The notes below the pieces were generated by a model. That model searched no databases and was not told the DNA's origin. It saw only the letters and a list, made by a program, of their open reading frames with translations. 39,559 nt of DNA from a virus (lineage: Duplodnaviria > Heunggongvirae > Uroviricota > Caudoviricetes): IMG/VR virus record IMGVR_UViG_2565956762_000001, positions 1-39,559 of that record, one strand, 5' to 3'. The position numbers and the translations under genes are program-made. Positions 4,465-39,559 of the stretch are shown here, piece by piece. The first letter of the stretch is position 1. The number at the start of each line of letters is the position of its first letter.

Positions 4465-4913
4465 TGGTTACCTCCTTTGCGAAGCTCTGCGGCGAACTCG
4501 TTAAGGGATATGTAGCAATCTCCAAATGTTAACGAACCGCTCGACTGCATATGCTCCATAGCCATCTCCACGCCCTGAGCCCGCACTTCGGCCACGAAAG
4601 CGTCGGTGGCTGGGGTTTCGATATCGTTAATTTCAGGAAGAATCTCTTCCCATGTGGCGATATCGCCATTCAAATGCCATCCGGCAATTCCACTGGAGTT
4701 ATCCGCAACACTGCGAACGGCTTCAATAGTTTCATGCATTGCCGCATTCTCCGCCTCCAGCGCCGCGCACTTGGCCTCCGCTTCAGAAAATTTACGCACC
4801 AGATATTCAGCGTTTGTTTCGTTAACCTTTAAATCACTTGGGATGCATTTACCTTTCAGAAAACCATCCATCTCAATTAGTGACATTTGTTTCATTTCTT
4901 CCCACTCCGCCAC
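4461..4913 (-). CDS. Hypothetical protein (150 aa; true start may be an internal ATG)
   Basis: ORF in operon orientation; the ORF-track start is a GTG; acidic, helix-rich composition. Confidence 0.5.
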
Positions 4914-5056
4914 ATCGCATTCAGATATTTGTTGTCATTAACAGAACCGAAACTCTTTCTCTTAAGCAATTCCTCTCTCGATGGCATTGGCTTTACGCGT
5001 TGGCGAATAATCATTTCTGCCGGAAGAATGCCGGGATTGTATGCAAGTCCTCTCAT
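4892..5056 (-). CDS. Hypothetical small protein (54 aa), below the ORF-track cutoff
   Basis: Hand-translated [54 protein letters not shown]; its ATG overlaps the stop of the upstream gene (ATGA). Confidence 0.3.
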
Positions 5057-5334
5057 GATTTACTCTCCACGAACTGGTCAATAGCCATGCTAAGTGACAC
5101 ACCTAAAGTCTCGATATGTTGCTGAATATCCTGTAGCGTCTGCGCCTGAGATAACAGGATTTCACGGTTGCATAATTCTTTAACCAGATGCTCAAACTTG
5201 CTGTAATAACCGATACGGCTTAGTGTTTCTTTCCCTGCATTCTCGCCTTCTTTGATAATTCCTCTTTCGCTAAGAATCAGATCGTGTTTGGTTCCGGTAA
5301 TAACGTATTTTCCGAGGTCGATGTTTAGCTTCAT
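5053..5334 (-). CDS. Hypothetical protein (93 aa)
   Basis: ORF in operon orientation; no domain recognised. Confidence 0.55.
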
Positions 5335-5350
5335 TGTTAATTACTCCATG

Positions 5351-5665
5351 TTAATTTATTCGTATGCCTGCTCTTTCTTCATCGAGTTTTTTTAGCTTGT
5401 ATCGCATAGCTCTTACTGAATAAATTGAGCGGCAGGTTGCAATTGCTATTTCTTCTGCGGAGAACTTACCGAAAAGTGATACTTCGGCTCTTGTCCATCG
5501 TCTTCCACGAAGTCGGCTAACAATGTCAGCGCCAATCCTTGTTGCTTTCGCCATTACTGCTTTTTCAGTCCTTTCCAGTTTTTCTGCGATAACTTCAACT
5601 GGCATTGTTGTCGCTACTTCGCGCAAGAAATCGACTTCCCATTTCTCCCATGGAGTCTTTTTCAT
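5351..5665 (-). CDS. Hypothetical protein (104 aa), possible tandem helix-turn-helix DNA-binding repeats
   Basis: Two internally similar segments (W..E..L….E.A..L.RT/kA…RiG); inference only. Confidence 0.5.
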   Translation of the reverse strand: MKKTPWEKWEVDFLREVATTMPVEVIAEKLERTEKAVMAKATRIGADIVSRLRGRRWTRAEVSLFGKFSAEEIAIATCRSIYSVRAMRYKLKKLDEERAGIRIN

Positions 5666-5676
5666 AGGCGATACCG

Positions 5677-6165
5677 TTATTTGATAAGAAGTGAAGGTTT
5701 CCCAACTTTGAGTTGAGCGCCGGGGATATTTATTCCTGCTTTTAGTTGGTGTTTGATTGCCAGTTTGTCGGCTTTTATTGTTGTTTCAAACTCAACGTAT
5801 TCAGGAGGAAGGGCGCTTGAGTCGATGATTTCTACAGTTTCTGACGGTTTGCGGATTGTTACCTGGTGAATACCTGCTCGAATATTTTTCTTGCCAACCA
5901 TTTCAAGCGATGACGCTATATATGATTTGATGCTGTCAATCTTATTTTGAATTACTGCGGCTCGCTCATTCAGTGACTTTGCCTCTTCCTTGAGGCGTTC
6001 AGCATAACCAGATTCATTTTTAATAATGGCAAGAAGTTGCTCTATTTTATCGGTAAATTCTCCTTCCATGCCTTCTATTGTGTCAGCAATCATCTCTGGC
6101 TCTAAATCTGAATCCATCAGCTTTGCGTATTCATTGGCTATTTCATACAGTTTGCTCACTGGCAA
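5677..6165 (-). CDS. Siphovirus Gp157-family protein
   Basis: 162-aa ORF immediately downstream of RecT; C-terminal …LKAGINIPGAQLKVGKPSLLIK fits my recollection of the Gp157 family. Confidence 0.6.
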   Translation of the reverse strand: MPVSKLYEIANEYAKLMDSDLEPEMIADTIEGMEGEFTDKIEQLLAIIKNESGYAERLKEEAKSLNERAAVIQNKIDSIKSYIASSLEMVGKKNIRAGIHQVTIRKPSETVEIIDSSALPPEYVEFETTIKADKLAIKHQLKAGINIPGAQLKVGKPSLLIK

Positions 6166-7045
6166 CCTCCAGTTTCGCTTTGCATTCTGCGTAAATGGCT
6201 TGTACGTTCTGCTGCAATTTCATTCCAGATGTCAGGCGATATGCTTCTGCAAAATATCGCTTCAAATCATCCATGTTTTCAGCCTGGGCCATTTCATCAC
6301 AAAGAAGTTGTGCTTTATCCATTATTTCCTGCTGGCGTTTCCGTTCATCTTCGCGGATATCTTCCTCTGATTTGTGCGGCATAACTGGTTCCTGATGCAT
6401 ACCTTCATCTTCGTTAAGCAGGTGAATGGCATTATCCAGTCGCTGGGCTTTAGGCCAGTATTTGCTGGCGCGTTTAACTATTGTTTTACGTGCCATCTCT
6501 TCCCAGAATGTTTTCCACGGTCCATTCTTTGCCTTGCTCGTTGCTTCAACAGCTTTAATTTCTGCCAGACTCATTTCTTCAGTCAGGTAGTCACCATCTG
6601 CTGTTTTAACCGTGCAATAACCACCAACAATAGAGCCTCGCTCACCAAATGCGTTGTATTTGTGGGTTGGTGCTGAATCAAGGCCGTTTGATTCATAGGT
6701 GTCGTTTGAGTACACCAGTTTGCATTGCCCCCACTTAATTGAGCCTGTCGATTGCGCAAGATGAAGTAATCCCATATAGCTGATATCAAGGCAAACCATG
6801 CCGTCGCGCGGAACCAGATAAGCCAGTTTGCTGGCCGGGTTTAAGGTGATGCCGATCGCTGCAACATTGATGATGGCGTTCTGTGCGCTGGTTGGATTTG
6901 CCAGTGCTGTTTTAGCCAGGTAATCGTTTTTCTGGAAATACTGAATTGCAAACTGGCTTTCCTTAGCCCATGTCACCGTCTGTTCAGTCAATGCTCCGCA
7001 GAATAACTGCTCTTGCTGTTTAACGAATTCAACGATATTGCTCAT
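6143..7045 (-). CDS. recT: RecT-family single-strand annealing recombinase
   Basis: 300-aa ORF; sequence recognised as RecT-like; position equivalent to lambda bet / P22 erf. Confidence 0.8.
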   Translation of the reverse strand: MSNIVEFVKQQEQLFCGALTEQTVTWAKESQFAIQYFQKNDYLAKTALANPTSAQNAIINVAAIGITLNPASKLAYLVPRDGMVCLDISYMGLLHLAQSTGSIKWGQCKLVYSNDTYESNGLDSAPTHKYNAFGERGSIVGGYCTVKTADGDYLTEEMSLAEIKAVEATSKAKNGPWKTFWEEMARKTIVKRASKYWPKAQRLDNAIHLLNEDEGMHQEPVMPHKSEEDIREDERKRQQEIMDKAQLLCDEMAQAENMDDLKRYFAEAYRLTSGMKLQQNVQAIYAECKAKLEVASEQTV

Positions 7046-7353
7046 GCAGCTTCTCCATAAATATGTCTGCGTTTGAATATTGCGAAGGCATATTCAGCCT
7101 TAACTCTTTCGGTTATTGCATCCCAGAACCATTCAGCGGCTTTTTCCTGATAGTTACAGTCATCATCTTCCAGCCAGTCGATAGCGTCCTTAGTGTGTTC
7201 ATCTGGTTTATATGAGCGAAGCATTTCGCTTATTGGGTCGCAACGTTTGCAGAGGCGATCAACTTCACTGTTGATTCGTTCGTAATCTTCATCAGTAAAA
7301 CTTGCGATTATTTGCGATATTTCACGCTTATCATTCAGAGTCAGAATCATCAT
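7042..7353 (-). CDS. Hypothetical protein (103 aa) at the gam/abc position upstream of recT
   Basis: ORF overlaps the recT start by 4 nt; acidic; function inferred from position only. Confidence 0.5.
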   Translation of the reverse strand: MMILTLNDKREISQIIASFTDEDYERINSEVDRLCKRCDPISEMLRSYKPDEHTKDAIDWLEDDDCNYQEKAAEWFWDAITERVKAEYAFAIFKRRHIYGEAA

Positions 7354-7438
7354 CTTTCTCCTGTTCTTTGTGCTGATTGAGCATTTCTTTCATATGACGA
7401 ATGAATTCTTCGTCTGACCAGTTATCTGTAAAACTCAT
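7331..7438 (-). CDS. Hypothetical acidic micro-protein (35 aa) translationally coupled to cIII
   Basis: Hand-translated MSFTDNWSDEEFIRHMKEMLNQHKEQEKDDDSDSE; its ATG overlaps the cIII stop (ATGA). Sits where lambda has kil. Confidence 0.25.
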   Translation of the reverse strand: MSFTDNWSDEEFIRHMKEMLNQHKEQEKDDDSDSE

Positions 7439-7605
7439 GGACGGCCTTGTTGTTTCAAAATATCCCAAAGCTTTTCGAGCAAGCTTTTCATTCTTGGTTG
7501 TTTAAAGTCTGCTCCGGTTAAAATGTTTTTTCGTGAATGCTGTACCGATAAAATCGGGTTGAAAGGGCGAACCGATGCCGCCCCTGCAATAGCGAACTGT
7601 TGCAT
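7435..7605 (-). CDS. cIII: CIII-like regulator (FtsH inhibitor family)
   Basis: 56-aa product MQQFAIAGAAS…LLEKLWDILKQQGRP resembles lambda CIII (MQYAIAG…; …IDILNQPG). GGAG RBS about 6 nt upstream. The ORF-track 91-aa version starts upstream and spans a terminator hairpin, so I use the internal Met. Confidence 0.65.
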   Translation of the reverse strand: MQQFAIAGAASVRPFNPILSVQHSRKNILTGADFKQPRMKSLLEKLWDILKQQGRP

Positions 7606-7665
7606 AGGATGCTCCTTCTGTTTGATTGCATAACGAAAACGCCTCGAGTGAAGCGTTATTGGTAT

Positions 7666-7695
7666 GCATATAAAAAGGCCCTCACACTGGAGGGC
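7666..7695 (-). terminator. tL-type intrinsic terminator upstream of cIII (minus strand)
   Basis: Hairpin gccctc-(6 nt)-gagggc followed on the minus strand by CTTTTTAT. Confidence 0.55.
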
Positions 7696-8542: not shown

Positions 8543-8842
8543 TCAAATAAGTGGTTTACTTCCTAATTTCATTTTCTGGCGACCAACACAAGTCACACCC
8601 ATTTCGCTGCGTGGCTTGCGGTAGTAAATACCGTTCTGTTTACGATCGACTTCTTCTGCCTTCTTGCAGCGAAGGCTTCCGAGTGATGCTGCTTTGTCTG
8701 CTCTGACGCAACCAGAGAGCTTTAGCGCAATTTTTCGCGCCAGTCGCTGCTCTTGCATTGCCTGTTCACGTTGAGCCTGTCTGCGTGCTCTGCGGCGATT
8801 TCTGGCGTTATCGTCAGCCAGATATGTAATGACTACTGTCAT
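8543..8842 (-). CDS. N: N-like transcription antiterminator
   Basis: 99-aa ORF; arginine-rich N-terminus (…NARNRRRARRQAQREQ…); C-terminus …GVTCVGRQKMKLGSKPLI resembles the lambda N C-terminus (…ITCSGRQKIKGKSIPLI); located immediately downstream of nutL. Confidence 0.8.
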   Translation of the reverse strand: MTVVITYLADDNARNRRRARRQAQREQAMQEQRLARKIALKLSGCVRADKAASLGSLRCKKAEEVDRKQNGIYYRKPRSEMGVTCVGRQKMKLGSKPLI

Positions 8843-10494: not shown

Positions 10495-11139
10495 ATGACA
10501 TACGAAAATGACAAATTCCAGGTTCTGAAGAGCATGAAGGTGCCAGATGATTTTAAATCAAATGGCTTTGTTTATGTGCTTTCGAATGAGTGCATGCCAG
10601 GAATTTATAAGATTGGGATGACTAAGCATTCACCAGAAGTTAGGGCTAAAGAAATTTCAGCCTCTACTGGCGTTCCTAAGCCATTTAAGGTGATAGCAGC
10701 CTTTCATTCAAATAATCCCGCATCAGATGAAAAACTCATTCATAAAGCCTTTGCAAAAGAGAGGCTTAGTGATAATCGAGAGTTTTTCAAGCTTGAAGAT
10801 AATGATCTTTCTGAATCTCTAAATGAAATAAGGGCGCTGGTTGGCCCTGAAAGAAATGGCGAGACGGCAGAATACGCAATTTACGACTCATTCATTTCTT
10901 TTCGCCATGAAAATGAGCTTGATCTTAATGAGGAGCTTATAGAGCAAGGTCTGGGTAGTGTAGTTGGTCATCTTCCTGCGGTGAAAAATTTCCTTATTCG
11001 CGCCGGAATTGATTACGCGAAGCAACTGATAAGCAAATATAACTCATCGATAGTTATTAATACAGATGGCAGTGTGGTGATGGTTAAGTCTCTTGAAGCC
11101 CAATGCTTTGATGCGGAGGTTGGAAATGAGCCTGGCTGA
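10495..11139 (+). CDS. T5orf172-domain (GIY-YIG-like) protein inserted between cII and O
   Basis: 214-aa ORF with AGGAG RBS; N-terminal …GFVYVLSNECMPGIYKIGMTKHSPEVRAKEIS…REFFKL… fits the T5orf172/GIY-YIG-like pattern; 3' end overlaps the O start. Confidence 0.7.
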   Translation: MTYENDKFQVLKSMKVPDDFKSNGFVYVLSNECMPGIYKIGMTKHSPEVRAKEISASTGVPKPFKVIAAFHSNNPASDEKLIHKAFAKERLSDNREFFKLEDNDLSESLNEIRALVGPERNGETAEYAIYDSFISFRHENELDLNEELIEQGLGSVVGHLPAVKNFLIRAGIDYAKQLISKYNSSIVINTDGSVVMVKSLEAQCFDAEVGNEPG

Positions 11140-11968
11140 AGTATTTTACCTGCCGAAGAGTGAACCTGTTGAACAGGAGCGAAGAGTGGCTGATATCGAT
11201 GATGGTTACACCAGATTCGCTAACGAGCTGCTGGAAGCTATCGCAAGTGCCGATTTAACCGCTCGCCAGTTGAAAGTTATGCTGGCCTACGTCCGGAAAA
11301 CATATGGATTCAATAAGAAAACAGATCGAATAGCCGATGAGCAAATTGCTCAGTTAACAGGACTGTCAAGGCAGAATGTTAACAAGGCTAAAAAAGAACT
11401 GATTTCAATGAATTGCCTGTTTATGGATGGAAATCAAATCGGTGTAAATAGGGAGGTATCTGCGTGGCAATTCAGCAAGTGTCTCCAAGTTAGCAACTTT
11501 GTCTCGAAGTTAGAGACAAAAAGTGTCTCCAAATTAGAGACACTCAATGTCTCGAAGTTAGAGACACACAAAAGACATTCTTTAAAGACAAAAGAAAATA
11601 TTAATAAACCCCCTATATCCCCCAAAAAAGTTTCTCAGAAGTTCGACCCGCTAGAAACAGAGTTGCCTGATTGGTTATCAGCAGAAATATGGTTGTCGTG
11701 GGTTACCTATCGCAAGGAGATAGGTAAGTCGATCAAGTCTAAGCAAAGCGTCACTCAGGCTATCAACGTTCTAAGCAGAAGTCTGGAGAAGGGATATACA
11801 CCTGAAGAAATTATAAACCAGAGCATCGCCAGTGGTTGGCAGGGGATTTTTGAACCAAAGACTCCAAAGGGGAAATCTCAACCGAGGCCGCAGCAGCGAG
11901 CTATGCAGGAAAACTTTGCCGCCAAAGATTACGGGCAAACTGAAATGCCTTCATGGGCGCAGGAGTGA
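11126..11968 (+). CDS. O: Replication initiator, lambda O-like (contains ori iterons)
   Basis: Product from MSLAEVFYLPKSEPVEQ… with GGAGG RBS; iteron array inside the gene; followed immediately by the helicase-loader gene. Confidence 0.8.
   Translation: MSLAEVFYLPKSEPVEQERRVADIDDGYTRFANELLEAIASADLTARQLKVMLAYVRKTYGFNKKTDRIADEQIAQLTGLSRQNVNKAKKELISMNCLFMDGNQIGVNREVSAWQFSKCLQVSNFVSKLETKSVSKLETLNVSKLETHKRHSLKTKENINKPPISPKKVSQKFDPLETELPDWLSAEIWLSWVTYRKEIGKSIKSKQSVTQAINVLSRSLEKGYTPEEIINQSIASGWQGIFEPKTPKGKSQPRPQQRAMQENFAAKDYGQTEMPSWAQE
11481..11612. repeat. Replication origin: four iterons plus adjacent AT-rich segment
   Basis: Four ~17-bp dyad-symmetric repeats (gtctccaagttagcaac, gtctcgaagttagagac, gtctccaaattagagac, gtctcgaagttagagac) spaced about 23 bp, then an A/T-rich stretch. 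Confidence 0.75.
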
Positions 11969-11970
11969 AT

Positions 11971-12864
11971 ATGAATACGACAAATGGTTACAATCTGGCA
12001 CTGCAAAGGCAACTTGTAGACTCAAAAATCAATGACATTTCTGATCTGAAACAGAAACTTGAGTTTAGCAAAATTGGATCAGCATCAGATGGAATGTCAG
12101 TTACCAGCACAGTGGAAGAGTGCGAGAAACACGGTAAATATACTTCCTATGAGAAATATCTGACCATCTCAGGAAAAAGAATTACTTCAAGTAAATCTGA
12201 GTGCCCACAGTGCCTTGAGGAGAAAATTCGTAAGAAAGAGATTGAACGTGAGCAGGCAGAACAAAGAGCAAGACAATCAAAAATTGAATATTTGTTGAAT
12301 TCTCTCAATATTCCAGAGAGGTTCAAAAACTGCACTCTTCAGAATTATGAGCCTGTTAACGATGATGCAAAGCGAGTTCTTAAGGTATGCCAGGCATATG
12401 CCAGTAAGTGGCCTGAACGCCTTCAAAAAGGTGGCGGACTGGTCATGTGTGGTAAGCCTGGAACTGGAAAGAACCACCTTGCACTGGCTATCGCTAGGCA
12501 CGCCATTATCGAGCATCAAAGCTCTGTGATATTTACCACTGCGTTGAAAATTGCCAGAGAGTACAAATCAACATGGTCTAAGGCCGCAACCAGAACTGAA
12601 GAAGAAGTCATTAGGCAATTTACGCATCCTGACTTGTTAATAATCGATGAGGTTGGCGTGCAGTTCGGCAGTGATGCTGAAAAGCTAATCATGTTCGAAA
12701 TTATCAACACCAGATATGAATACATGAAGCCAACAATCCTGATTAGTAATCAGAGCAAAGATGAACTTTCGGCATTCATTGGTGAGCGTGTTATTGACAG
12801 GATGAATGATGGCGGCGGGTGCACCCTTGCGTTTACATGGGATAGTTACAGGAGCAGAACGTGA
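11971..12864 (+). CDS. DnaC/IstB-like AAA+ helicase loader (replication protein)
   Basis: Walker A GKPGTGKNHLA and Walker B LLIIDEVG; ATG 3 nt after the O stop with AGGAG RBS. Confidence 0.85.
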   Translation: MNTTNGYNLALQRQLVDSKINDISDLKQKLEFSKIGSASDGMSVTSTVEECEKHGKYTSYEKYLTISGKRITSSKSECPQCLEEKIRKKEIEREQAEQRARQSKIEYLLNSLNIPERFKNCTLQNYEPVNDDAKRVLKVCQAYASKWPERLQKGGGLVMCGKPGTGKNHLALAIARHAIIEHQSSVIFTTALKIAREYKSTWSKAATRTEEEVIRQFTHPDLLIIDEVGVQFGSDAEKLIMFEIINTRYEYMKPTILISNQSKDELSAFIGERVIDRMNDGGGCTLAFTWDSYRSRT

Positions 12865-13758: not shown

Positions 13759-14070
13759 ATGGACGAATCAAGAAAGCAGTTTGAAGAATGGTTTGAAAAT
13801 TACACCGGATGTGATCCTAAAAATAAAATATACGCCAATATGGTTGAGATGTATTGGCAAGCGTGGCAGGCATCGCGAGCAGCTATTGAACTGGATATCG
13901 ACTGGCCAGAATCGAATGACGACTTTTGGAAAGATGGTGAAGAAGGTGCTTATGCGATGGGTTATGAGGATGGGCGTGACAAAACGGTAATTGCAGTAAT
14001 GAAAGCTATCAGAGCCGCTGGAATTAAAGAGAAGAATTTCGATGAAGCAAACAATATTCCTCCGAACTAA
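13759..14070 (+). CDS. Hypothetical protein (103 aa)
   Basis: ORF in nin-region operon context. Confidence 0.5.
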   Translation: MDESRKQFEEWFENYTGCDPKNKIYANMVEMYWQAWQASRAAIELDIDWPESNDDFWKDGEEGAYAMGYEDGRDKTVIAVMKAIRAAGIKEKNFDEANNIPPN

Positions 14071-14452
14071 GCAACAACAGCAAGCCGCAATCAACGCCAT
14101 CCTCGCAACACCACTCGATAAAGACAAGCCAGTCACCATCCGCATTACTGACTACAAGCGCAACCTTGACCAGAACGCAAAATTTCACGCGATGCTGGCG
14201 GATATCGCACGTCAGGTTCAATGGTGCGATAAGTGGTTAAAACCAGAACAATGGAAGGTTTTGTTGATTAGCGGTCATGCAGTGGCAACAAACCTGGAAG
14301 CTGATGTTTTGCCCGGGCTTGAAGGCGAATACGTCAACATTCGCGAAAGCAGCGCGCAGATGAGCGTGAAGCGCATGGCAAGTCTGATCGAGTACACAAC
14401 AGCCTGGGCTATTGGTCAGGGTGTCAGATTTACCGACAGGAGGTACGAATGA
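14042..14452 (+). CDS. ninB: NinB-like recombination protein
   Basis: 136-aa ORF with …[22 protein letters not shown]…, resembling lambda NinB. Confidence 0.75.
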
Positions 14453-14987: not shown

Positions 14988-15163
14988 TGCTTAGCCCATC
15001 CCAATCCATTCAATACCAGAAAGAAAGCGTCGAGCGGGCTTTAACGTGCGCTAACTGCGGTCAGAAGCTGCATGTGCTGGAAGTTCACGTGTGTGAGCAC
15101 TGCTGCGCAGAACTGATGAGCGATCCGAATAGCTCAATGTACGAGGAAGAAGACGATGGCTAA
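14987..15163 (+). CDS. ninF: NinF-like small zinc-binding protein (58 aa)
   Basis: Hand-translated [58 protein letters not shown]; matches my recollection of lambda NinF. Confidence 0.6.
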
Positions 15164-15767
15164 ACCAGCGCGAAGACGATGTAAAAACGATGAATGTCGG
15201 GAATGGTTTCACCCTGCATTCGCTAATCAGTGGTGGTGCTCTCCAGAGTGTGGAACCAAGATAGCACTCGAACGACGAAGTAAAGAACGCGAAAAAGCGG
15301 AAAAAGCAGCAGAGAAGAAACGACGACGAGAGGAGCAGAAACAGAAAGATAAACTTAAGATTCGAAAACTCGCCTTAAAGCCCCGCAGTTACTGGATTAA
15401 ACAAGCCCAACAAGCCGTAAACGCCTTCATCAGAGAAAGAGACAGCGACTTACCATGTATCTCGTGCGGAACGCTCACGTCTGCTCAGTGGGATGCCGGA
15501 CATTACCGGACAACTGCTGCGGCACCTCAACTCCGATTTGATGAACGCAATATTCACAAGCAATGCGTGGTGTGCAACCAGCACAAAAGCGGAAATCTCG
15601 TTCCGTATCGCGTCGAACTGATTAATCGCATCGGGCAGGAAGCAGTAGACGAAATCGAATCAAACCATAACCGCCATCGCTGGACTATCGAAGAGTGCAA
15701 GGCGATCAAGGCAGAGTACCAACAGAAACTCAAAGACCTGCGAAATAGCAGAAGTGAGGCCGCATGA
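15156..15767 (+). CDS. ninG: NinG/Rap recombination-promoting protein
   Basis: 203-aa ORF with Cys clusters; recognised as lambda NinG-like; ATG overlaps the ninF 3' end. Confidence 0.8.
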
Positions 15768-15970
15768 CGTTCTCAGTAAAAACCATTCCAGACATGCTCG
15801 TTGAAGCATACGGAAACCAGACAGAAGTAGCACGCAGACTGAAATGTAGTCGCGGTACGGTCAGAAAATACGTTGATGATAAAGACGGGAAAATGCACGC
15901 CATCGTCAACGACGTTCTCATGGTTCATCGCGGATGGAGTGAAAGAGATGCGCTATTACGAAAGAATTGA
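15764..15970 (+). CDS. ninH: NinH-like protein
   Basis: 68-aa [40 protein letters not shown]…. Confidence 0.7.
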
Positions 15971-16613
15971 TGGCAGCAAATACCGAAATATTTGGGTAAT
16001 TGGCGATCTGCACGGATGCTACACGAACCTGATGAAAAAACTGGAGACGATAGGATTCGACACCAAAAAAGACCTGCTTATCTCGGTTGGCGATTTGGTT
16101 GATCGCGGTACAGAGAACGTCGAATGCCTGGAATTAATCACATTCCCCTGGTTCAGAGCTGTACGTGGAAACCATGAGCAAATGATGATTGATGGCTTAT
16201 CAGAGCGTGGAAACGTCAATCACTGGCTGTTTAATGGCGGTGGCTGGTTCTTTAATCTCGATTACGACAAAGAAATTCTGGCTAAAGCTCTTGCCCATAA
16301 AGCAGATGAACTTCCGTTAATCATTGAACTGGTGAGCAAAGGTAAAAAATATGTTATCTGCCACGCCGATTATCCTTGTGATGAATACGAGTTTGGAAAG
16401 CCAGTTGATCATCAGCAGGTAATCTGGAACCGAGAACGAATCAGCAACTCACAAAACGGGATCGTGAAAGAAATCAAAGGCGCGGACATGTTCATCTTTG
16501 GTCATACGCCAGCAGTGAAACCACTTAAATTTGCCAACCAGATGTATATCGATACCGGCGCAGTGTTCTGCGGAAATCTCACATTGATTCAGGTACAGGG
16601 AGAAGGCGCATGA
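15948..16613 (+). CDS. Ser/Thr protein phosphatase (lambda PPase / NinI type)
   Basis: Metallophosphatase motifs GDLHG, GDLVDRG, GNHE; start taken at internal [12 protein letters not shown]…. Confidence 0.9.
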
Positions 16614-19351: not shown

Positions 19352-19837
19352 ATGAATAACTTTGTTGAAATTACCTCAAGAATTGGTCGCATGTACCAAG
19401 ATTTTCTTATAAGTGGAAAGGGGTCTGGCGACATCATAGAGGAAATTGACAAGCTAAGTGCAGAGCTGAGAAGGAATGGGTGTGTTAATTCTATCTTTTT
19501 TGAAACTTTGCTAAAGCAAGGCTTCATGTTTGACATGATTAATTACAACAAAGTCGCACCCAGTGCTTCGCAAAAATCATATGTGTACGTTCTGCATGCT
19601 GAAGATAGTGGGCTAACAAAAATAGGGTTTAGTCGCAGGGTTAATAAACGAATTTCAGAGATATCTCGCATGAGTGGTGGGAAGCTAAATCTAATTGCAA
19701 AGATTCCGGCCGATAGAGAGCTTGAAACCAAATTGCACCAAAAATATTACAACTATAGGTCGCACGGGGAGTGGTTTAGCCTCAATCGTTGTCATTTGAA
19801 AGAGCTAAAAGAAATTCCTGGTAACGAACTGAAATAA
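19352..19837 (+). CDS. Second T5orf172-domain (GIY-YIG-like) protein, between Rz and terminase
   Basis: 161-aa ORF; …SYVYVLHAEDSGLTKIGFSRRVNKRISEISR…GEWFSL… fits the T5orf172 pattern; about 65-aa N-terminal extension of unknown function. Confidence 0.7.
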   Translation: MNNFVEITSRIGRMYQDFLISGKGSGDIIEEIDKLSAELRRNGCVNSIFFETLLKQGFMFDMINYNKVAPSASQKSYVYVLHAEDSGLTKIGFSRRVNKRISEISRMSGGKLNLIAKIPADRELETKLHQKYYNYRSHGEWFSLNRCHLKELKEIPGNELK

Positions 19838-36983: not shown

Positions 36984-38102
36984 ATGGTGGTTAACATGAG
37001 TGCCTTTTTCCTTTTTATTGCAGTAATTGGTGTAATTATAGATTTAGCATCTCCGGTGACAGTTTATGGTGTACAACTATTCCTATTTCCATTCGCATGC
37101 CTTTTTTTATACGCAAAAAGTGTAAGTAAAATGACGTATCAGTCATTATTATTTATAATAATGGTGGTATCTATTGTTATAATAAGTTCATTTATCCAGG
37201 TTTATATATCACAGCATAATGAGATATTATTATCACAGACGCTTAAAGTAATAATTTGGGTGGTGTCGTCATACTTGTTATATGTTGGATGTAAGGGAGT
37301 GGATAAAGATACTTTAGAGAGATCAATAAATGCAGCGCTAGTAGTTTTCATACTCTCTTTATTTATTCAAGTAGTATCGAAACTTTTATTTGGTTCTATT
37401 GTTGACTACTCTATGCTAATTGGTGGTGAACCATCAAGAAATATGATGACTGGAGTTGGGTTTAGGCCAACAGGGCTAACTGCAGAACCAAGTGTATATT
37501 GCGGAATAACAGCGTGGTTAATTACGTTACGATATGCAATTAATAAAAAGATTGATTATTTGTTTTTACTGTCATGCGTTTCAATGACGTTTACATTGTC
37601 ATTTGTTGGAATATTTCTTTGCTTTCTCATGCTATGTGTTGGTATGATGAGAATTAAGATGATTATCCCAGTGATAGCAATATTTGTGATTGGGTATCTT
37701 TCTGTTTTAAATATTGTAAATGACAGGATTGTTTTATTTCTATCTGGGGCTGATGGTAGCAATAATATAAAGATAGAGACCATTCTTGATTTTATTGGAA
37801 ATCAAAATTTATATATTTTTGGTTATGGTTTGATTGGTAAGTCAGAATCTGCGCCATCATTTTATGAGTCGTTATATGATATGACTATATTTGGAAACTT
37901 TATTACAATATTTGGTCTTCCATTTGGAGTATTATGCATAGTATTATATTGTGTTTTTATAATTAAAATTAAAATAACAAAAAGGGCAAAGCTAATGATG
38001 TTGCTATCATCTTTAAAAATTAGCCTGCCGTTTTTTGCTGTGTTTTATATGGCTATTGCTATGATATGTGCAATTTCAAATAAGAACAAAGCGTTAACGT
38101 AA
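36984..38102 (+). CDS. Polytopic inner-membrane protein, candidate O-antigen polymerase/ligase-like (Wzy/WaaL-like) conversion protein
   Basis: 372-aa ORF, very hydrophobic with around 10 predicted TM segments; visibly AT-rich DNA and atypical codon usage; sits between tailspike and attR. Confidence 0.65.
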   Translation: MVVNMSAFFLFIAVIGVIIDLASPVTVYGVQLFLFPFACLFLYAKSVSKMTYQSLLFIIMVVSIVIISSFIQVYISQHNEILLSQTLKVIIWVVSSYLLYVGCKGVDKDTLERSINAALVVFILSLFIQVVSKLLFGSIVDYSMLIGGEPSRNMMTGVGFRPTGLTAEPSVYCGITAWLITLRYAINKKIDYLFLLSCVSMTFTLSFVGIFLCFLMLCVGMMRIKMIIPVIAIFVIGYLSVLNIVNDRIVLFLSGADGSNNIKIETILDFIGNQNLYIFGYGLIGKSESAPSFYESLYDMTIFGNFITIFGLPFGVLCIVLYCVFIIKIKITKRAKLMMLLSSLKISLPFFAVFYMAIAMICAISNKNKALT

Positions 38103-39082: not shown

Positions 39083-39559
39083 TTAACTAAACATCGCAGT
39101 AATCGAGGCGCTTGCCAGAGAATGGAAATGGACGTTAAACCCGACCATCGCGCCGCTGGCACCTTCATCGACATCAATACGTTCTACATCCAGCGCGTGA
39201 ACGGTAAAAATGTAGCGATGGGTTTCGCCTTTCGGCGGCGCTGCACCATCGTACCCGGTTTTACCAAAGTCGGTACGCGTCTGCAAAACGCCGTCTGGCA
39301 TTGCTACCAGACCAGAGCCAAACCCTTGCGGTAATACGCGGGTATCCGCGGGTAAATTAACAACTACCCAGTGCCACCAGCCGGAGCCAGTTGGCGCATC
39401 CGGGTCGTAGCAGGTGACAACAAAACTTTTCGTTCCCACAGGAACATCATCCCACGCCAGATGCGGTGAAATATTATCGCCATCGTAACCCATGCCGTTA
39501 AAGACATGACGATGCGGCAACTTATCGCCATCGCGCAGATCATTACTGATGAGTTTCAT
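39083..39559 (-). CDS. ybhB: Host YbhB (PEBP/kinase-inhibitor-family protein)
   Basis: 158-aa ORF MKLISNDLRDGDKLPHRHVFNGMGYDGDNISPHLAWDD… recognised as E. coli YbhB; start codon at the last three bases of the window. Confidence 0.9.
   Translation of the reverse strand: MKLISNDLRDGDKLPHRHVFNGMGYDGDNISPHLAWDDVPVGTKSFVVTCYDPDAPTGSGWWHWVVVNLPADTRVLPQGFGSGLVAMPDGVLQTRTDFGKTGYDGAAPPKGETHRYIFTVHALDVERIDVDEGASGAMVGFNVHFHSLASASITAMFS

Follow-up and report, generated by a model that had tools for sequence, protein, structure and literature searches.

A nuclease-free RecT module of a P22-like lambdoid prophage with a Gp157-family protein at the exonuclease position and a 103-residue acidic protein at the Gam position

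We analyzed a 39,559-nucleotide stretch of viral DNA (IMG/VR record IMGVR_UViG_2565956762_000001, the whole of which is referred to here as the window), which by its gene content is a P22-like lambdoid prophage of Escherichia coli inserted at the lambda attachment site, and focused on its recombination (Rec) module, in which a RecT-type annealase is paired with a Gp157-family protein. An earlier note on this DNA had described that pair, the lack of a recognizable exonuclease beside it, and two small acidic proteins upstream, one of which might act on RecBCD. All of the open reading frames (ORFs) it named are present where it placed them, on the minus strand, in a gene order that reads cIII, a 35-residue peptide, a 103-residue protein, RecT, Gp157, a 104-residue helix-turn-helix (HTH) protein, DUF5405 and DUF2737. 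Their coordinates in the window, with residue counts (aa), isoelectric points (pI) and best profile matches, are as follows.

7435-7605, minus strand: cIII-like protein, 56 aa, directly upstream of the cassette (phrog_550 'CIII', E 4e-22)
7331-7438, minus strand: acidic peptide, 35 aa, pI 4.35 (phrog_17766, E 7e-16)
7042-7353, minus strand: acidic, all-helical protein, 103 aa, pI 4.65 (phrog_3486, no known function)
6143-7045, minus strand: RecT, 300 aa (PF03837, 115.8 bits against a cut-off of 24, E 2.5e-33; phrog_148, E 9e-92)
6404-6955, minus strand: core annealing domain of RecT, residues 31-214
6146-6430, minus strand: C-terminal domain of RecT, about 95 residues (approximately 206-300)
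5677-6159, minus strand (ORF to 6165): Gp157-family protein, 160 aa (PF05565, 129.8 bits against a cut-off of 28.6, E 1e-37)
5351-5665, minus strand: basic HTH protein of the Mu gp9/P22 Abc1 family, 104 aa, pI 10.0 (phrog_323, E 8.5e-20)
5053-5334, minus strand: DUF5405 protein, after the module (PF17399, 1.7e-5)
4892-5056, minus strand: DUF2737 protein (PF10930, 5e-29), 72% identical to P22 orf56

The cassette forms one translationally coupled block, transcribed leftward from pL. ATGA overlaps connect the cIII stop with the start of the 35-residue ORF, a coupling to cIII that the earlier note had seen, and likewise the stop of the 103-residue gene with the start of RecT; the RecT and Gp157 ORFs overlap by 17 nt, and the GTG at 6159 is the likely Gp157 start because homologs are 160 residues long. 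Terminator-like hairpins on the coding strand were found only 5' of cIII (7638-7695), with none inside the cassette. Among 80 close relatives the cassette is kept as a block with mosaic flanks, the 35-residue peptide being found in 76 and the 104-residue HTH gene in 79 of them.

By profile, the annealase is a RecT family member: its core (residues 34-204) matches the solved RecT structure 7UB2 (E 7e-5), and phi80 RecT is 57% identical to it over 228 aligned residues (query 5-232). No Pfam or PHROG match to YqaJ, Exo, RecE or DUF3799 was obtained for any left-arm ORF, the early right arm or the nin region, a profile scan that took in few of the late structural genes, and the whole window, searched by tblastn with seven nucleases (lambda Exo, phi80 Exo, two YqaJ/Exo-type nucleases, SEN22 ExoVIII, a DUF3799 protein and a RecE-like protein), returned no match. 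The adjacent Exo-, YqaJ- or RecE-type gene that marks a two-component recombinase is thus not found beside the annealase, and the presence of an annealase with neither a nuclease nor a single-stranded DNA-binding protein (SSB) in the scanned regions is the composition of P22-class Rec modules. The module, as far as its sequence tells, has an annealase without a phage exonuclease, and reliance on a host nuclease, as the earlier note had suggested, is a reasonable expectation. That an exonuclease has gone unrecognized among the unannotated neighbors, making this a conventional two-component recombinase, we judge very improbable. Neighbors of 114, 150, 100, 83 and 53 residues do lack an assigned function, and the prophage also encodes two T5orf172/GIY-YIG-like proteins, but the latter lie outside the module, the cassette proteins are small (35-162 residues) and match no nuclease family in Pfam or PHROGs, and cassettes that are otherwise identical differ in their flanking ORFs. 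A candidate acidic residue of Gp157 (E123), invariant in the close family, is by eye not kept in the divergent homolog of contig L100.

The C-terminal domain of this RecT is unrelated to the Exo-binding C-terminal domain of lambda Beta and phi80 RecT. We compared RecT-centered loci drawn from IMG/VR with four queries and freed of duplicates, which left 199-203 loci, and found at least three unrelated types of C-terminal domain, each agreeing with the gene downstream in 199 of 199 loci (L104-L336). The window type is followed by Gp157 (126/126 loci), the Beta/phi80 type by a lambda-type Exo (68/68) and the third type by YqaJ (5/5). One chimeric RecT (L245) has a core 84% identical to that of the window and switches at 'KYWP', where the core ends, to a YqaJ-type domain, with YqaJ as the next gene. 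Within clusters of RecT proteins at 90-95% identity the upstream gene varies (the 103-residue family, GamL or Gam) and the downstream gene is constant. Red-beta binds lambda Exo through its C-terminal domain (PMC6393309), and on the simplest reading the window-type domain would likewise bind Gp157; we infer from this comparison that it is a candidate Gp157-binding module.

The same loci define two slots around the annealase, one upstream and one downstream. The upstream slot, scored in 203 loci, is occupied as follows.

103-residue family: 114 loci
phi80 GamL: 84 loci
lambda Gam: 2 loci
none of these: 3 loci, one of them carrying an insertion between the 103-residue gene and RecT

Exactly one of the three families is present in 200 of the 203 loci and two together in none. 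The downstream slot is held by Gp157, a lambda-type Exo or YqaJ, never by two of them together, and the two slots combine as follows.

103-residue family with Gp157: 109 loci
GamL with Exo: 67 loci
GamL with Gp157: 14 loci
lambda Gam with Gp157: 2 loci
103-residue family with Exo or YqaJ: 3 loci
GamL with YqaJ: 1 locus

In the two lambda Gam loci (L040 and L044), a lambda Gam homolog (63% identical) stands in place of both the 35-residue and the 103-residue gene, and the RecT that follows shares its N- and C-terminal regions with that of the window, differing only in its middle.

These patterns bear directly on how the module is read. In a survey of the Rec modules of 325 lambdoid phages by Zheng, Casjens, Davidson, Amundsen and Smith (Genome Res 2025, PMC12315714), the phage HK140, which has the same cassette, is cited as an example with a 'SAP-4' RecT-type annealase and a 'MuGam' anti-RecBCD function, with no nuclease and no SSB, and the 103-residue gene is not counted within its module. 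This published description may already be complete, with Gp157 as a Mu Gam-type end binder and the sole anti-RecBCD function and the 103- and 35-residue genes as unrelated accessory genes, for instance in host takeover or anti-defense; we regard this as rather unlikely. It agrees with the PHROG label 'Mu Gam-like end protection' of phrog_253, with the 103-residue family having no detectable likeness to known RecBCD inhibitors, and with the cIII/kil neighborhood being a known site of accessory genes. However, an anti-RecBCD Gp157 should exclude Gam and GamL, yet it is found alongside one or the other in 16 loci, and it is the exonucleases that it excludes; the 103-residue family, conversely, is never doubled with Gam or GamL (0/203) and heads Bet+Exo and RecT+YqaJ modules that are otherwise free of an inhibitor. 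The anti-RecBCD gene of the module is Gp157 according to the publication, whereas the slot analysis points to the 103-residue gene instead or as well.

The identity of Gp157 itself is secure as a family assignment: the PF05565 match covers positions 1-162 of the 162 in the profile, and of 187 homologs found, all 120 listed carry PF05565. An AlphaFold2 (AF2) model (mean predicted local distance difference test, pLDDT, 74) features a long coiled-coil helix (residues 21-88) and, after it, a small beta domain. Its description as Mu Gam-like comes from others. The protein matches phrog_253 (E 1e-53), a homolog is annotated 'Bacteriophage Mu Gam like protein' in phage Gally, and the RefSeq entry of HK140 carries the PHROG label; PHROGs, the Gally annotators and Zheng et al. 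thus assign end protection or anti-RecBCD activity to a protein that the earlier note had treated as a bystander. In our hands the Mu Gam family PF07352 gave no match in Gp157 at E<=0.1, and Mu Gam itself matches phrog_491 and phrog_2205, not phrog_253. A direct hhalign comparison of Gp157 with a Mu Gam profile returned a probability of 1.3% (E 0.04) from shallow alignments, though the C-terminal regions align in register, and in hidden Markov model shuffle tests, also on shallow alignments, 1669 and 723 of 20000 shuffles scored as high as the real comparison. These results hence do not confirm that Gp157 and Mu Gam are homologous, a relationship that rests on the assignments of others.

The 103-residue protein has no Pfam match. 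Its AF2 model (pLDDT 81) has five helices; no PDB match was found by sequence, and a Foldseek search with the monomer model gave none at E<3, the PDB searched presumably including the Gam structures. An exhaustive profile search collected 54 proteins of the family, of which 32 full-length members were aligned, about 100 residues long and mostly ending in E[AV]A; species-representative genomes, scanned for the family, yielded a single locus. The Gam Pfam model matched none of 33 family members, and an 81-sequence profile of the family compared with Gam and GamL profiles gave P 0.2-0.3, equal to unrelated controls, where the same kind of comparison clearly shows Gam and GamL to be homologs (hhalign E 1e-49). 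A diverged Gam was considered on the strength of a DDDxx[FY]QExAAE motif shared at the same relative position (9.9 bits, reached by 23 of 20000 shuffles; hhalign P 0.002), and this signal was gone in the larger alignments that gave P 0.2-0.3; the shorter DDDxx[FY]QE motif was not significant, and we rejected the likeness as evidence of homology.

We examined 13 divergent genomic contexts of the family, from three phages and several genomic and metagenomic contigs, and in all of them the 103-residue gene is the first of the Rec module, preceded, where the upstream region was recovered, usually by cIII and often by a small ORF too. It is followed by RecT and then YqaJ or Exo in contigs L091 and L092, Cronobacter phage ENT47670 and Erwinia phage Midgardsormr38; by a lambda Bet-like annealase and then a YqaJ/Exo-type nuclease in L087, L090 (lambda Exo-like) and L102; by a RecE-like or DUF3799 nuclease in SEN22, L089 and L100; and by RecT and then Gp157 in the window, L097 and L098. 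No Gam, GamL, Abc2 or true Mu Gam homolog was found in any of the 13. SEN22 is scored without an anti-RecBCD gene in Table 1 of Zheng et al., and we detected none in ENT47670 or Midgardsormr38. That the family heads Bet/Exo, RecT/YqaJ and RecE modules otherwise lacking a known anti-RecBCD gene supports a candidate inhibitor role, and because it occupies the same slot as Gam and GamL and never accompanies either, we propose the 103-residue protein as a candidate Gam analog and RecBCD inhibitor. The suggestion of the earlier note that a small acidic protein upstream might modulate RecBCD gains from this position and exclusivity in the case of the 103-residue protein, although no relationship to Gam, GamL or Abc2 was detected for it or for the 35-residue peptide.

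A different role, as an annealase-specific accessory factor or chaperone comparable to Arf for P22 Erf and not directed at the host, would fit the overlap of its stop with the RecT start and the finding that, in the majority of contexts, the gene directly after it is an annealase of RecT or Bet type. We consider it improbable, as the gene also precedes differing annealases (lambda Bet-like as well as RecT-like) and, in SEN22, L089 and L100, RecE-like nucleases without an adjacent RecT, and as Gam or GamL replace it before RecT proteins with identical or near-identical N-termini.

Further observations were made around these loci. Homologs of phi80 Mog ('modifier of Gam'), which is TolA-like and carries an annotation as antitoxin for GamL, are encoded in L095 (2756-3733), L102 (2764-3729) and several IMG/VR loci, slightly upstream of modules headed by the 103-residue family as well as by GamL. 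A 281-residue protein without a Pfam match lies between the 103-residue family gene and Gp157 in L100 (4318-5163) and L101 (4095-4940), where no RecT is present; it has strong matches to PHROGs labeled 'exonuclease' (RecE C-terminal-like) and may be a 'RecE-2' protein, described by Zheng et al. as lacking a nuclease domain (PMC12315714). In one database protein (P0025) the N-terminus of the 35-residue peptide is fused to the C-terminal half of the 103-residue protein, apparently through a deletion between the two 'KDDD/EDDD' stretches.

Overall, this is a Rec module of HK140 type, and comparison across loci makes it probable that Gp157 stands in it for the exonuclease and the 103-residue protein for Gam. 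In this model, Gp157 would be the cognate partner of RecT in the exonuclease's place; probably dimeric, it would bind and protect double-strand DNA ends as Mu Gam does, and would recruit RecT through the dedicated C-terminal domain of the annealase. The 103-residue protein, in place of Gam or GamL, would probably neutralize RecBCD or another host nuclease, single-stranded DNA for RecT would come from host resection enzymes or replication, and Orf (NinB) and Rap (NinG), whose genes lie in the nin region, may assist. Several points weigh against this model. The loci were drawn with four related queries and include many close relatives, amounting to few independent events (5-24 RecT clusters depending on threshold); the region coding for the RecT C-terminal domain adjoins the downstream gene, and physical linkage may explain part of their covariation; capping of DNA ends should hinder resection and with it the supply of single-stranded DNA to RecT; and neither the sequence nor the fold of the 103-residue family is significantly similar to those of Gam, GamL or Abc2. 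The roles given to it and to Gp157 are putative ones, drawn from comparison.

The wider proposition, that the 103-residue family (phrog_3486) is a new class of RecBCD or host-nuclease inhibitor that fills the Gam slot of many enterobacterial Rec modules, including some scored as free of an anti-RecBCD gene, and at the same time that Gp157 is the physical partner of the annealase and not a Gam equivalent, which would make annealase and Gp157 an 'annealase + end-binder' type of two-component recombinase, is one we put forward only tentatively. Were the 103-residue family to inhibit RecBCD, it would be a fifth type of inhibitor for an enzyme viewed as a hub of bacterial immunity, and several phage recombination modules would be reclassified. 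Were Gp157 to partner RecT, this would explain nuclease-free phage annealases, including those of Gram-positive phages, and could offer new parts for recombineering.

In other lineages the position of the 35-residue ORF is taken by an unrelated small ORF of 36-54 residues, and a weak lambda Kil-like ORF lies nearby in two of the other lineages. The 'WSDEEFI' of the peptide resembles 'FSDEEFI' of P22 Arf; for an identification as Arf the match is weak (38% over 21 residues, E 0.13) and its motif only seven residues long. A match to phrog_2123 'recombinase' also spans only 21 residues, and the protein by which mEp043 is represented in that family looks unrelated. At the other end, directly after Gp157, lies the 104-residue HTH gene that the earlier note had overlooked. 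Its family phrog_323 also takes in P22 Abc1 (1.3e-23) and Mu gp9 (5.2e-29), and a homolog in Gally is annotated 'Anti-RecBCD protein 1, similar to P22 Abc1'; jackhmmer started from the 104-residue protein reaches Mu gp9 (3e-13) and not Abc1, which is why we place it closer to gp9. The Mu gp9 gene directly adjoins Mu gam (phage Mu, L006 5482-6325) and P22 abc1 adjoins abc2, and HTH genes, either gp9/Abc1-like or of the phi80 gp35 type, follow most Rec modules, be they of the Exo, YqaJ or Gp157 kind.

The surrounding prophage is defined by the following features, together with a P22-type portal and a tailspike head-binding domain among the late genes.

1-1284: ybhC-like pectinesterase gene, at one prophage end
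1419-2489: lambda-type integrase, at the same end
8543-8842: N-like gene, upstream of cIII on the minus strand
14042-14452, plus strand: NinB/Orf, accessory recombination, nin region (PF05772, E 8.5e-53)
15156-15767, plus strand: NinG/Rap, accessory recombination, nin region (PF05766, E 7.8e-92)
between NinB/Orf and NinG/Rap: NinX
39083-39559: PEBP/ybhB-like gene, at the opposite end

The nin region also encodes a calcineurin-like phosphoesterase of NinI type (15873-16613), and the replication pair (11953-12864) consists of an O-like protein and a DnaC/IstB-type loader instead of lambda P. The two T5orf172/MUG113 (GIY-YIG-like) domain proteins are separate, one (10495-11139) lying between cII and replication gene O and the other (19352-19837) just 5' of the terminase genes. 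The tailspike gene is closely followed, at the end of the prophage, by a 372-residue ORF (36984-38102) without a Pfam match, which resembles an acquired accessory gene; the stretch from 36984 to about 39000 has a G+C content of 31-32% against about 47% elsewhere. An Rfam search of the whole window found no RNA family.

On either strand, Chi (GCTGGTGG) is absent from the prophage (window 1300-38500), from ENT47670 and from the first 50,000 of the 50,485 bases of Midgardsormr38, where about four would be expected in total; the sole Chi of the window (39374, minus strand) lies inside the flanking host gene. SEN22-class phages are tabulated with 0/0 Chi by Zheng et al., whose rule is that modules with an anti-RecBCD gene are mostly Chi-free (PMC12315714), and the absence of Chi here is in loose agreement with that rule.

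The arrangement is not unusual but an already catalogued, common and ordinary one, the published HK140-type Rec module. A 3.9-kb region around it is 93-94% identical to Gally, vB_EcoP-611R6, HK140, mEpX1, Kapi1 and Louie (63-79% of the query covered), whose 103-residue proteins are 99-100% identical to that of the window. Compared with HK140, mEpX1, Kapi1 and Gally, the same genes stand in the same order (103-residue gene, RecT, Gp157, 104-residue HTH gene) at 94-100% identity, and the differences are confined to flanking accessory genes, which show the usual mosaicism. Of 5426 complete E. coli genomes, 265 contain the 2.1-kb cassette at a coverage of at least 80%, and 1103 contain part of it. 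Modules without a nuclease make up 84 of 246 Rec modules in the survey of Zheng et al., and the functional class with an anti-RecBCD function and an annealase only, of which P22 is the prototype, comprises 46 phages (PMC12315714).

Firmicutes phages, too, have been reported to carry Gp157 and Mu Gam genes beside Erf and Sak4 modules (PMC8093625). There, as in the window, the Sipho_Gp157 family lies beside an annealase, in Erf-SSB and Sak4-SSB modules whose upstream gene is Gp157, Mu Gam, DUF1351 or DUF2483; those modules differ in their annealase families, in the presence of an SSB and in having Gp157 upstream of the annealase, not downstream (PMC8093625).

The likeness to P22 (arf, erf, abc1, abc2, orf56) lies in an annealase that has no phage exonuclease and needs host functions, in an HTH protein of the Abc1 family, in the tiny acidic peptide encoded upstream and in a DUF2737 protein encoded downstream, which in P22 is orf56. 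Unlike P22, the annealase here is RecT and not Erf, Gp157 occupies the position of abc1 and abc2, which in P22 both lie downstream of erf and not upstream as the earlier note had it, and there is an extra 103-residue gene upstream. According to Murphy's work on P22, Abc2 reportedly turns RecBCD into the nuclease of the module. No Abc2 homolog was found in the window by tblastn or BLASTP, and hijacking of RecBCD in the style of Abc2 is not indicated for this module. With lambda Red (gam, bet, exo) and phi80 (gamL, rec, exo) the window shares three slots after cIII/kil, in the common order of a small acidic protein, an annealase and a partner; in contrast to both, its Exo slot is held by Gp157 and its Gam slot by a 103-residue protein without detectable homology to Gam. 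As gp9 adjoins gam in phage Mu, finally, so a gp9-family HTH gene here adjoins the gene of a protein that is modeled with a coiled coil and a beta domain and that others have labeled Mu Gam-like, but the gene order is inverted relative to Mu, Mu has no annealase, and adjacency to an HTH gene is not specific to Gp157.

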